Below are positions 60,215 through 61,973 of a DNA stretch of 64,000 bases, one piece after another. Location of the stretch: assembly GCF_044324785.1 (NCBI RefSeq), contig NZ_CP172127.1. One strand, written 5' to 3'. Each line of letters starts with the position of its first letter. Within the stretch, counting starts at the first letter, position 1. The notes under the pieces were generated by a model that searched no databases, had not been told where the DNA came from, and saw only the letters and a list, made by a program, of their open reading frames with translations. Both the position numbers and the translations under genes were made by a program. The stretch is from Escherichia coli. GTDB lineage: Bacteria > Pseudomonadota > Gammaproteobacteria > Enterobacterales > Enterobacteriaceae.

Positions 60215-60671
60215 GGGGGGCGGGGGAGATTATGGAACTTTGCTCCCTGCAAGGACTAATTATTTTTGCATATTATTTCATCGGCTGTGATGATTTTTCG
60301 TTAATATCCATTATGTTAAGAAGTTCGGGATGAGTGTGAACTCATTGGATTTTTTATCCGTCTTGATCTGCCGAAGGATCAGACTATACATTGTCGAGAT
60401 CGCAATGATGATATGAGTTGTTCCTCTGCCACGGCTCTAATCAAAAAAGAGCAGGAGTGCTTTTCCATCTATTGCGATGATGGCTTTATTATCTGAAGGA
60501 TGACAGTCACATTTAAAAATATTTAATTTATAGATCACAATGTAGGTTCATGGAATATATGTATACAACTATTTTTCTCTTCACTTTTAATTATCGCATT
60601 CATTATAACACTAAGTTAAAAAAACTCCTGGAGAGTGAGTTATTAATATATTTTTAAATATAATTAAGTTA

Positions 60672-61193
60672 TTATTCATCGATGCATTTTATAGAATCAT
60701 CAATGGCTACAATAGTACTATTAACTCTCCAATTTATATTTTTATTATCATTGCAAATATTAACTGAATCTATATCAATGATTTTTTTATTTTTATCTTT
60801 TATTTTATTTACAGTTTCAATGCAATCAGCGACAAGTTGGTGTGGATTTAGATTCTTCAGATATGGTCTTATGATCTTTCCCTTGCTTAATAAATAGCAT
60901 GTATAGGATTCGGAAAGTCCAGCATCTATTTTGTACATCATTATTCTAGATAAGGATGTGAGAAATGCCTTGTTATCATTAGCAGCCATATATGCCAGTC
61001 CGAGTTCAGCCTCTGCGGCTTTACATGAAAAATAGCTAAGTGAACACGCTTTTCGTCCCTCTTGGGTACTGGCTGATATTAGTGCCCATAATATTGCCTT
61101 GTCTGCCAAATCCAACTCTCTCTGAAATTGGTTTACAGTAACTGCATTCGCAGAAATAGAGAAGAAAAGCACAATTGTTAATAACCTTGTCAT
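60672..61193 (-). CDS. secreted/periplasmic protein, likely orphan Rhs immunity protein (yibG position)
   Basis: 173-aa AT-rich ORF with signal peptide MTRLLTIVLFFSISANA; lies in the Rhs downstream module array. Confidence 0.5.
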   Translation of the reverse strand: MTRLLTIVLFFSISANAVTVNQFQRELDLADKAILWALISASTQEGRKACSLSYFSCKAAEAELGLAYMAANDNKAFLTSLSRIMMYKIDAGLSESYTCYLLSKGKIIRPYLKNLNPHQLVADCIETVNKIKDKNKKIIDIDSVNICNDNKNINWRVNSTIVAIDDSIKCIDE

Positions 61194-61197
61194 ATTT

Positions 61198-61473
61198 CTA
61201 GTCCGTCACTGTTAATGTGCTATCTGGCTCTGAAAATATTAGCTCATTTAATTTTTGCATGTCATTAGATGAACCAGTTATACAACCCTCGGAACAGAAT
61301 CGAGGTCCTAAAGATGGACCAAAAGCGTTTAAACAACTATGTGTTAAAAATCCATCACGATTATACGTTTCTGTATTTGCTGACGGTACTAAACGTATAC
61401 CATTAGGTTTTCTATTAGTTGCTCCAGGACTGTTAAGCAAGCCTCGTCCGGTTTGCTTCATTGAGTTCTCCAC
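61198..61473 (-). CDS. hypothetical protein, possible orphan Rhs C-terminal toxin fragment
   Basis: 91-aa ORF without signal peptide preceding the 173-aa signal-peptide ORF; an overlapping plus-strand ORF (61217-61543) makes the coding strand ambiguous. Confidence 0.3.
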   Translation of the reverse strand: MENSMKQTGRGLLNSPGATNRKPNGIRLVPSANTETYNRDGFLTHSCLNAFGPSLGPRFCSEGCITGSSNDMQKLNELIFSEPDSTLTVTD

Positions 61474-61565
61474 TTTAGACTATTGGACTATCTTTCAACA
61501 TGGCATCGCCTTAGTATACCGCTGGTTTTCCGCTCATTGTTAATTTTCTCTTTCGTTCATTTCAC

Positions 61566-61973
61566 TTAATTTTCAGTTTTTTTCCAAAAGTCAATATTCC
61601 CTTCTAATAAAATTTTTTCTATGGAATCTTCATTAATTTTATTATTAGAGCATATGACATTATCTTGAACGCCATATGACACCACCCCGTTTTTATCAAT
61701 ATAATATCTGTCTTTACCATCAACAATATAAATCCTAACATTTTTATCATCAAAATGGTAACACTCATTACTAGACCTGTTCAGTAACATTAATAACTTC
61801 TCACGATTTATCTGTAATAATTTTTGTGCACCATCTTTTATTGCAAAATTTTCAATTTTACTTTTAGTGACAGGGGAATATGTTTGGATGCGAAAAGGCA
61901 TCCTATAATGGAAAACATCAGCTATACAGCAAGATGAAAAAAATACGGAAATAAAATACAGACATACTTTCAT
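61566..61973 (-). CDS. putative Rhs immunity protein (signal peptide or lipoprotein, 135 aa)
   Basis: AT-rich ORF beginning 56 nt after the Rhs stop; hydrophobic N-terminus MKVCLYFISVFFSSCC. Confidence 0.55.
   Translation of the reverse strand: MKVCLYFISVFFSSCCIADVFHYRMPFRIQTYSPVTKSKIENFAIKDGAQKLLQINREKLLMLLNRSSNECYHFDDKNVRIYIVDGKDRYYIDKNGVVSYGVQDNVICSNNKINEDSIEKILLEGNIDFWKKTEN

Follow-up and report, generated by a model that had tools for sequence, protein, structure and literature searches.

Gene content of the rhsA locus

A 64,000-nucleotide (nt) stretch of Escherichia coli DNA (contig NZ_CP172127.1, referred to here as the window) was examined near its end, where a gene of the Rhs polymorphic-toxin type is followed by 1.8 kb of small open reading frames (ORFs; 60215-61973). 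The gene order towards the window end was mtlR-mtlD-mtlA on the minus strand and then yibI-yibH on the plus strand, with yibH at 59078-60214. Beyond yibH, ORFs of 173, 91 and 135 amino acids (aa) and a large Rhs ORF were found, all on the minus strand; the Rhs ORF starts beyond the window end and stops at 62030. E. coli N3 has DNA 100% identical to 60215-62450 at its rhsA locus, which is flanked there by yibH and yibF. The region is very probably the 3' end of the E. coli rhsA polymorphic-toxin locus, with two toxin/immunity modules of different age. Its features, in the direction of transcription, are the following.

62447-64000, minus strand: 3' part of an Rhs core of the rhsA type, in a gene that continues past the window end, with a match to RHS_core (NCBIfam) at the core end
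62432-62446, minus strand: DPLGL motif (PxxxxDPxGL) at the core/toxin boundary, read from the sequence and coinciding with a break in GC content
62030-62431, minus strand: C-terminal toxin domain of the Rhs protein, 133 aa plus stop codon, a predicted HopH1/NleD-like (Peptidase_M91) zincin with HEMGH at 62135-62149
61566-61973, minus strand: 135-aa predicted periplasmic immunity protein, with a predicted signal peptide (residues 1-18) at 61920-61973
61437-61537, minus strand: decayed relic of an rhs 5' end, recognised by frame translation and by alignment with three rhs 5' ends
61198-61473, minus strand: 91-aa ORF with a GTG start, a fragment of a Tlde1/DUF2778 toxin tip (residues 16-91 at about 61198-61428)
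60672-61193, minus strand: intact 173-aa orphan immunity gene of the Imm57 family (PF15596), with a predicted signal peptide (residues 1-17) at 61143-61193
60215-60671, no strand: 457-nt stretch without coding sequence from Imm57 to yibH, conserved in E. coli (identity >99% with strain ECONIH1 and about 94% with the part of K-12 that holds the yibU pseudogene)

The preliminary description of this DNA had called the 1.8 kb AT-rich, and the GC content of 60215-61973 was indeed 0.334, compared with 0.532 in yibH and 0.615 in the Rhs core, with the drop from about 0.62 to 0.35 located at the DPLGL motif. The gap between the Rhs stop codon and the start of the 135-aa ORF is 56 nt and contains a strong AGGAG ribosome-binding site, and only 4 nt separate the stop of the 91-aa ORF from the start of the 173-aa ORF; the spacing of the minus-strand ORFs is operon-like. 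Scans of the region for promoters and terminators gave counts at background level, and promoter-like sites were no commoner than in shuffled sequence. This layout is that of an ordinary polymorphic-toxin locus, a standard Rhs displacement array, as in the main and orphan toxin/immunity arrays and the C-terminal displacement model set out by Poole et al. (2011; PMC3150448). What is new in the locus is limited to a family of likely immunity proteins against M91-type Rhs toxins, which has not been catalogued so far.

The metalloprotease tip of the Rhs protein

The Rhs ORF occupies 62030-63961 of the window; the full-length protein in the identical N3 locus is 1380 aa long, and in locus L001 RefSeq annotates the ORF as 'RHS element core protein'. 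The protein has the architecture of an Rhs polymorphic toxin, as a YD-repeat core ending in PxxxxDPxGL is followed by a variable tip and then by an immunity gene. An alignment of the tip with its relatives showed invariant H100, E101, H104, D110, N118, N124 and R135, which make up an HExxHxxGxxD motif and an ENP motif. The HopH1 pattern of HExxH with a downstream [DE]N is present as HEMGH and as E123 and N124 of ENP. The structure prediction gave a confident zincin model of the BoNT/NleC/NleD type, whose nearest folds were BoNT, GtgA and NleC.

An exhaustive search with the tip recovered 109 cluster representatives at E<=1e-3; a word-index protein search returned nothing besides the tip's own cluster. 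The domain was C-terminal in all 38 relatives with inspected sequence, mostly after a DPxGL-type core end. Peptidase_M91 was matched at E<=1e-3 by 21 of these 38 relatives (best 1.1e-8), and P0024, a cluster identical to the tip, has a precomputed Pfam match to PF14891. The tip therefore looks like a small, working HopH1/NleD-like (M91) zinc metalloprotease, as judged from its motifs and predicted fold. Membership of the VgrG2b/Tpe family was also considered and was rejected, as the tip resembled the VgrG2b C-terminal domain neither in sequence nor in fold.

Tips of this kind have been noted before. Zhang et al. (2012) defined Tox-HopH1 by 'HExxH, [DE]N', reported it as fused to Rhs, and listed no immunity protein for it. 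Rhs-M91 proteins have also been mentioned, uncharacterised, in Salmonella Dublin (Salmonella pathogenicity island 19, SPI-19), where the neighbour is a 110-aa protein with one transmembrane segment, and in a Shiga toxin-producing E. coli (STEC) O22:H8 strain, for whose downstream ORF no assignment was given.

The 135-aa protein encoded next to the toxin

The 135-aa protein begins with MKVCLYFISVFFSSCCIA, followed after the predicted cleavage site by DV. This segment contains one Lys and a hydrophobic core with a mean Kyte-Doolittle value of 2.55, and a signal peptidase I (SPase I) site is predicted after A18. Signal-peptide calls were made here by simple rules together with conservation across family members, and by these measures the N-terminus appears to be a classic signal peptide with a small-x-small cleavage site. 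Signal-peptide N-termini had been proposed for both the 135-aa and the 173-aa ORF in the preliminary description, and both were recovered with hydrophobic cores and SPase I sites.

The 135-aa protein and four of its relatives had no match in Pfam, NCBIfam, PADLOC, the sequences of the Protein Data Bank or Foldseek. Close homologues were confined to E. coli and E. albertii, and in the complete E. coli genomes (5426) the gene was found as a near-identical copy in 180 and as a divergent copy in none. Nine members of the toxin family had their 3' flanking DNA read, and in seven of the nine loci (the window, L013, L014, L019, L022, L023 and L024) a gene of the 135-aa family lies directly 3' of the toxin. 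The tips of the six other paired loci were 60%, 46%, 41%, 38%, 37% and 35% identical to the window tip. For L013, L014 and L019, with tip identities of 60%, 46% and 41%, the neighbouring protein was 42%, 31% and 24% identical to the 135-aa protein; tip and neighbour diverge in step. A hidden Markov model (HMM) built from the four closest family members scored the other four at 1.7e-16, 2e-6, 1.2e-5 and 6.6e-5, with E-values set for a nominal database of 1e6 sequences. A signal peptide was predicted in every family member, in L024 after the start had been moved upstream, and the -1 residue relative to predicted SPase I cleavage, Ala18, was conserved in the five-member alignment. Because the family follows the toxin in seven of nine loci, and always with a signal peptide, the 135-aa protein is most likely the cognate periplasmic immunity protein of the metalloprotease tip, a role predicted from gene order and sequence. 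This agrees with the periplasmic immunity function suggested in the preliminary description for the 135-aa and 173-aa ORFs, the latter through its Imm57 match (see below).

Several observations weigh against this reading. The match of the window tip to Pfam Peptidase_M91 is weak (E=8.6e-4 to 2.5e-3), and the characterised M91-type relatives, NleD and HopH1, act inside eukaryotic cells and not in the bacterial periplasm. In L015 the gene after the toxin encodes an unrelated signal-peptide protein that is not of the 135-aa family, and in L020 no same-strand gene follows the toxin. The predicted structure of the 135-aa protein is also poor (predicted local distance difference test, pLDDT, 67), so that no fold was assigned and no binding mode is proposed.

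A membrane-anchored form of the same immunity protein, acylated at Cys15, was considered as the leading alternative. The PROSITE-type lipobox (FFSSC) fits Cys15 of the E. coli protein and Cys17 of the E. albertii members of the family, and the immunity proteins of the VgrG2b-protease family in enterobacteria are outer-membrane lipoproteins. The pattern fails in L013 (SSMCC), however, and L014, L019 and L023 have no usable Cys; the loose PROSITE lipobox is absent from five members of the family and fits only the E. coli and E. albertii proteins. What is conserved instead is an Ala at position -1 of SPase I cleavage, and the Phe at -3 is atypical for a lipobox. As the lipobox-like FFSSC is limited to E. 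coli and E. albertii, a soluble periplasmic form cleaved by SPase I is more likely, and the lipoprotein is an unlikely, although credible, alternative. The lipobox-like N-terminus of the preliminary description thus holds as a pattern at Cys15 of this protein but not as a conserved property of its family.

The tip could instead be an anti-eukaryotic effector of the NleD/HopH1 kind, in which case the secreted 135-aa protein would not be an immunity protein. The tip resembles type III effectors that cleave host kinases, and its nearest folds, named above, are host-directed proteases. Anti-host effectors require no immunity gene, however, whereas here a single family of small signal-peptide proteins follows the toxin in most loci, across distant bacteria, and co-diverges with it. 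The 135-aa gene also occupies the classical position of an Rhs immunity gene, and a homologue stands in an E. albertii immunity array. An anti-eukaryotic role is accordingly considered improbable, and periplasmic immunity to the metalloprotease is retained as the likely explanation of the 135-aa gene.

In E. albertii, relatives of the Rhs toxin are located behind vgrG, and a related Rhs protease there (hhalign probability 96.6%) has, as its second following gene, one for a 71% identical homologue of the 135-aa protein. In L005 and L009, an Rhs gene with a HELAH tip is followed by genes for a 149-aa and a 138-aa signal-peptide protein (about 5356-5805 and 6001-6417), the latter being the homologue, and no toxin remnant was seen in the 117-195 nt gap before it. 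This arrangement looks like an immunity array in which the 138-aa homologue is an orphan immunity gene. The 149-aa neighbour was tried as a distant member of the 135-aa family, which was not supported (hhalign probability 3.7%, HMM E>1).

Two other contigs with members of this family were observed. In L021 (positions 1-238; P0023; an E. coli contig from 2 samples), an Rhs core end reading ...YIDPLGL is fused in frame to the mature part of a 135-aa-family homologue (ADMFHYGMPLRIQ...); a deletion has removed both toxin and signal peptide, and its junction coincides with a short TAGC(TGAT) microhomology to the signal-peptide cleavage region of the immunity gene. The food metagenome contig L013 (positions 399-1196), which carries the 60%-identical toxin/immunity pair, also has a TseH-like gene with an Imm58 neighbour and several Rhs core fragments, and is a dense orphan array.

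The displaced toxin fragment and its Imm57 immunity gene

The 91-aa ORF begins with GTG and contains an internal ATG at 61459-61461 preceded by a GGAG site. Its N-terminus is not hydrophobic (maximum Kyte-Doolittle 0.28), as expected from the earlier view of this ORF as lacking a signal peptide. The match to Pfam Tlde1_dom was weak and partial (E=1.3e-3, model positions 66-107 of 120), and a whole-domain match to Tlde1/DUF2778 (PF10908) was not obtained. Residues 16-91 are, however, 100% identical to the last 76 aa of a 'tlde1 domain-containing protein' of ECONIH1, which is intact at 135 aa and is followed by Imm57. In P0002 the complete Tlde1-type tip, with PF10908 present, extends for 145 residues after DPLGL; the 91-aa fragment lacks the 69 N-terminal residues of these 145, among them the conserved GPIPxGxW segment. 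The fragment keeps H45-x15-SEGCI, in which Glu replaces the His of the LD-transpeptidase motif H-x(14-17)-(S/T)HGC-h. The suggestion that this ORF is a displaced orphan tip was therefore correct, with the addition that it is truncated to the C-terminal 76 of 145 residues of a Tlde1-type Rhs tip.

The DNA homology of the Tlde1 fragment begins at about 61436, which marks a recombination junction, and residues 1-15 of the 91-aa ORF are translated out of frame from the rhs 5' relic that abuts it. The relic (61437-61537) reads ATGAGCGGAAAACCAGCGG..., which translates as MSGKPAVY*GDAMLKDSPIV*; its counterparts are MSGKPAARQGDATMKGGPIVQGS in strain 98208 and MSGKPAARQGDMTQYGGSIVQGS in the rhsA gene of N3. 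It has a 75% DNA match to the rhs gene start of strain 98208, and the three aligned rhs 5' ends translate as MSGKPAARQGD.... This relic, fused to the middle of a Tlde1 tip, suggests that an entire second rhs gene was lost by internal deletion or, alternatively, that the relic was imported with the incoming module.

Since half of the fold and any Rhs shell are missing, the 91-aa ORF is probably an inactive, displaced Tlde1 toxin tip. The retained His/Cys motif counts against this conclusion, as it makes some residual activity conceivable. Continued function was considered for the 91-aa ORF and for its 87-aa form, the latter being called as a protein in public data (P0001); the product could be a mini-toxin, or the ORF a stored tip available for recombination onto rhsA. 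The frame is open, the internal ATG has its ribosome-binding site and a variant of the catalytic motif is kept; orphan tips at other loci are moreover known to be functional or reusable (Poole et al., 2011). The loss of the N-terminal 69 residues speaks against it, as does the absence of an export or delivery domain, and RefSeq gives the ORF no annotation. Upstream there is no Rhs core homology that could serve recombination onto rhsA, only a decayed 5' relic with stop codons. A working 91-aa product thus seems to us very doubtful, and an inert remnant is the preferred reading.

The 173-aa protein, by comparison, is complete. It begins with MTRLLTIVLFFSISANA, followed after the predicted cleavage site by VTV, and this N-terminus, with one basic residue, a strongly hydrophobic core and a small-x-small cleavage site, has the properties of a textbook Sec/SPase I signal peptide. 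Residues 30-127 matched Pfam Imm57 (PF15596) at E=2e-44 over model positions 2-100 of 100, and the protein is present in RefSeq as WP_000197506.1, 'Imm57 family immunity protein'. Imm57 was described by Zhang et al. (2012) as an immunity family for Tox-LD-peptidase toxins, and the Tlde1 preprint made the same link for Rhs-fused DUF2778 toxins. The genomic neighbours agree with the placement expected of Imm57 genes, next to an LD-peptidase or caspase toxin tip, as the gene lies 4 nt after the Tlde1 fragment here and after the intact Tlde1 tip in ECONIH1. The 173-aa gene can be read from these data as an intact orphan Imm57 immunity gene, for which neutralisation of Tlde1-type toxins is predicted. 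Tlde1 toxins modify peptidoglycan from the periplasm, which fits an exported Imm57 protein.

The Tlde1/Tldi1 (DUF2778) effectors are LD-carboxy/transpeptidases of the T6SS (type VI secretion system). The window fragment matches Tlde1_dom and keeps the His...Cys motif but corresponds to the C-terminal 52% of the domain, with SEGC instead of (S/T)HGC, and the Salmonella immunity protein Tldi1 belongs to a different family (DUF2195) from the Imm57 found here.

Proposed mode of action

The current module would consist of the Rhs protein ending in a HopH1/NleD-like zinc metalloprotease and of the 135-aa protein encoded by the next gene. After delivery, presumably by the T6SS, the protease would kill by cutting an envelope or periplasmic substrate, a location that follows from the predicted periplasmic placement of the immunity protein. 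The 135-aa protein would be exported by its Sec signal peptide and would bind and block the protease in the periplasm, which would shield the producer and its kin. The displaced module comprises about 100 nt of decayed rhs 5' end, the second half of a Tlde1-type LD-carboxy/transpeptidase tip and the intact Imm57 gene; the orphan Imm57 protein may continue to guard against Rhs toxins with a Tlde1 tip that neighbouring cells fire. The envelope-acting toxin of the preliminary description fits the Tlde1 toxins, which attack peptidoglycan; for the metalloprotease, the periplasmic site is deduced from the immunity protein only.

The tip resembles HopH1/NleD (Peptidase_M91, Tox-HopH1) in its small zincin fold and its HExxH and downstream [DE]N, and differs from them in its weak Pfam score and in that those members which have been characterised cleave host mitogen-activated protein (MAP) kinases as type III effectors. 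No immunity family has been described for M91 proteases, and the signal-peptide neighbour found here suggests that the target is bacterial and periplasmic. The closest precedent for such a function is the VgrG2b C-terminal domain together with Tpe1-Tpi1, a T6SS-delivered, periplasm-toxic HExxH protease with an envelope immunity protein, although the family differs; VgrG2b shows toxicity in the periplasm alone, and the signal peptide of its immunity protein is required. On balance we favour the view that the 135-aa protein is the founding member of an undescribed family of inhibitors that act in the periplasm specifically on M91 Rhs proteases, and that M91 includes an antibacterial branch that cuts an envelope or periplasmic substrate. 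If this is true, proteases so far known solely as type III effectors aimed at the host gain an antibacterial branch. The pair is a tractable candidate in which to look for what M91-type proteases attack in bacteria. The locus leaves the present understanding of Rhs systems as it was. The analysis makes this variable E. coli locus cleanly readable for annotation and gives a 'hypothetical protein' a likely role.

Distribution in E. coli and comparison with K-12

Among the 5426 complete E. coli genomes searched, 180 carried the arrangement in full, and its strain-variable part of about 1 kb (about 61437-62431) was present in 180 genomes at >=99% identity. The Imm57 gene and the 3' half of the toxin are far more widespread, being present in 3692 of the 5426 genomes, including K-12, mostly at about 92% identity. 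An intact orphan Imm57 gene in about two-thirds of E. coli would mean that immunity was kept after the weapon was lost, which bears on the competition of strains in the gut. The identical or near-identical DNA in 180 genomes, together with homologues for each ORF, indicates that the ORFs are real; the notion that they are chance frames in horizontally acquired, AT-rich DNA, where a low GC content gives frequent stops in some frames and possibly spurious ORFs in others and where promoter-like sites are at the level of shuffled sequence, is refuted by this homology, by the strong family matches with conserved gene order in other species, and by the shared strand and operon-like spacing of the three ORFs.

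The K-12 array rhsA-yibA-yibJ-yibG-yibS-yibW-yibV lies at the same chromosomal site as the window locus and has the same build, with an Rhs core, DPxGL, a variable tip, an immunity gene and then displaced tip/immunity remnants in low-GC DNA. In the window, the protease tip and the 135-aa gene replace yibA, yibJ, yibG, yibS and the 5' part of yibW, and the orphan is preceded by an rhs 5' relic and not by a piece of Rhs core. The spacer, the Imm57 gene and the 3' part of the toxin fragment (60215-61436) were 92-94% identical to the yibW-yibV-yibU stretch of K-12. In K-12, the yibW pseudogene corresponds to the toxin fragment, and the truncated yibV, annotated as 'PF15596 family protein', to Imm57, which suggests that yibW, yibV and yibU are remnants of a Tlde1-tip/Imm57 module. 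Because of this homology, about 1.2 kb of the region is a conserved tail of the rhsA locus, and the orphan module is not new to the source strain. The content of the region had been thought to differ from that of K-12, and this was borne out for about 61437-62431 but not for 60215-61436.

A full-length Rhs-Tlde1 gene was not found in E. coli at the inspected loci of ECONIH1, K-12 and TUM14759, which held orphans only; full Rhs-Tlde1 fusions have been reported in the literature for Shigella sonnei. In the K-12 sequence (NC_000913.3, 3768892-3770146; L018), the Imm57 frame is broken, whereas it is intact in the window. Many genomes with the window-type locus had a second site with a partial match to 60215-62450. 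The numbers of genomes with either half of the Tlde1 tip (3667 against 3692) are not simply additive, and copies at another rhs locus are possible.

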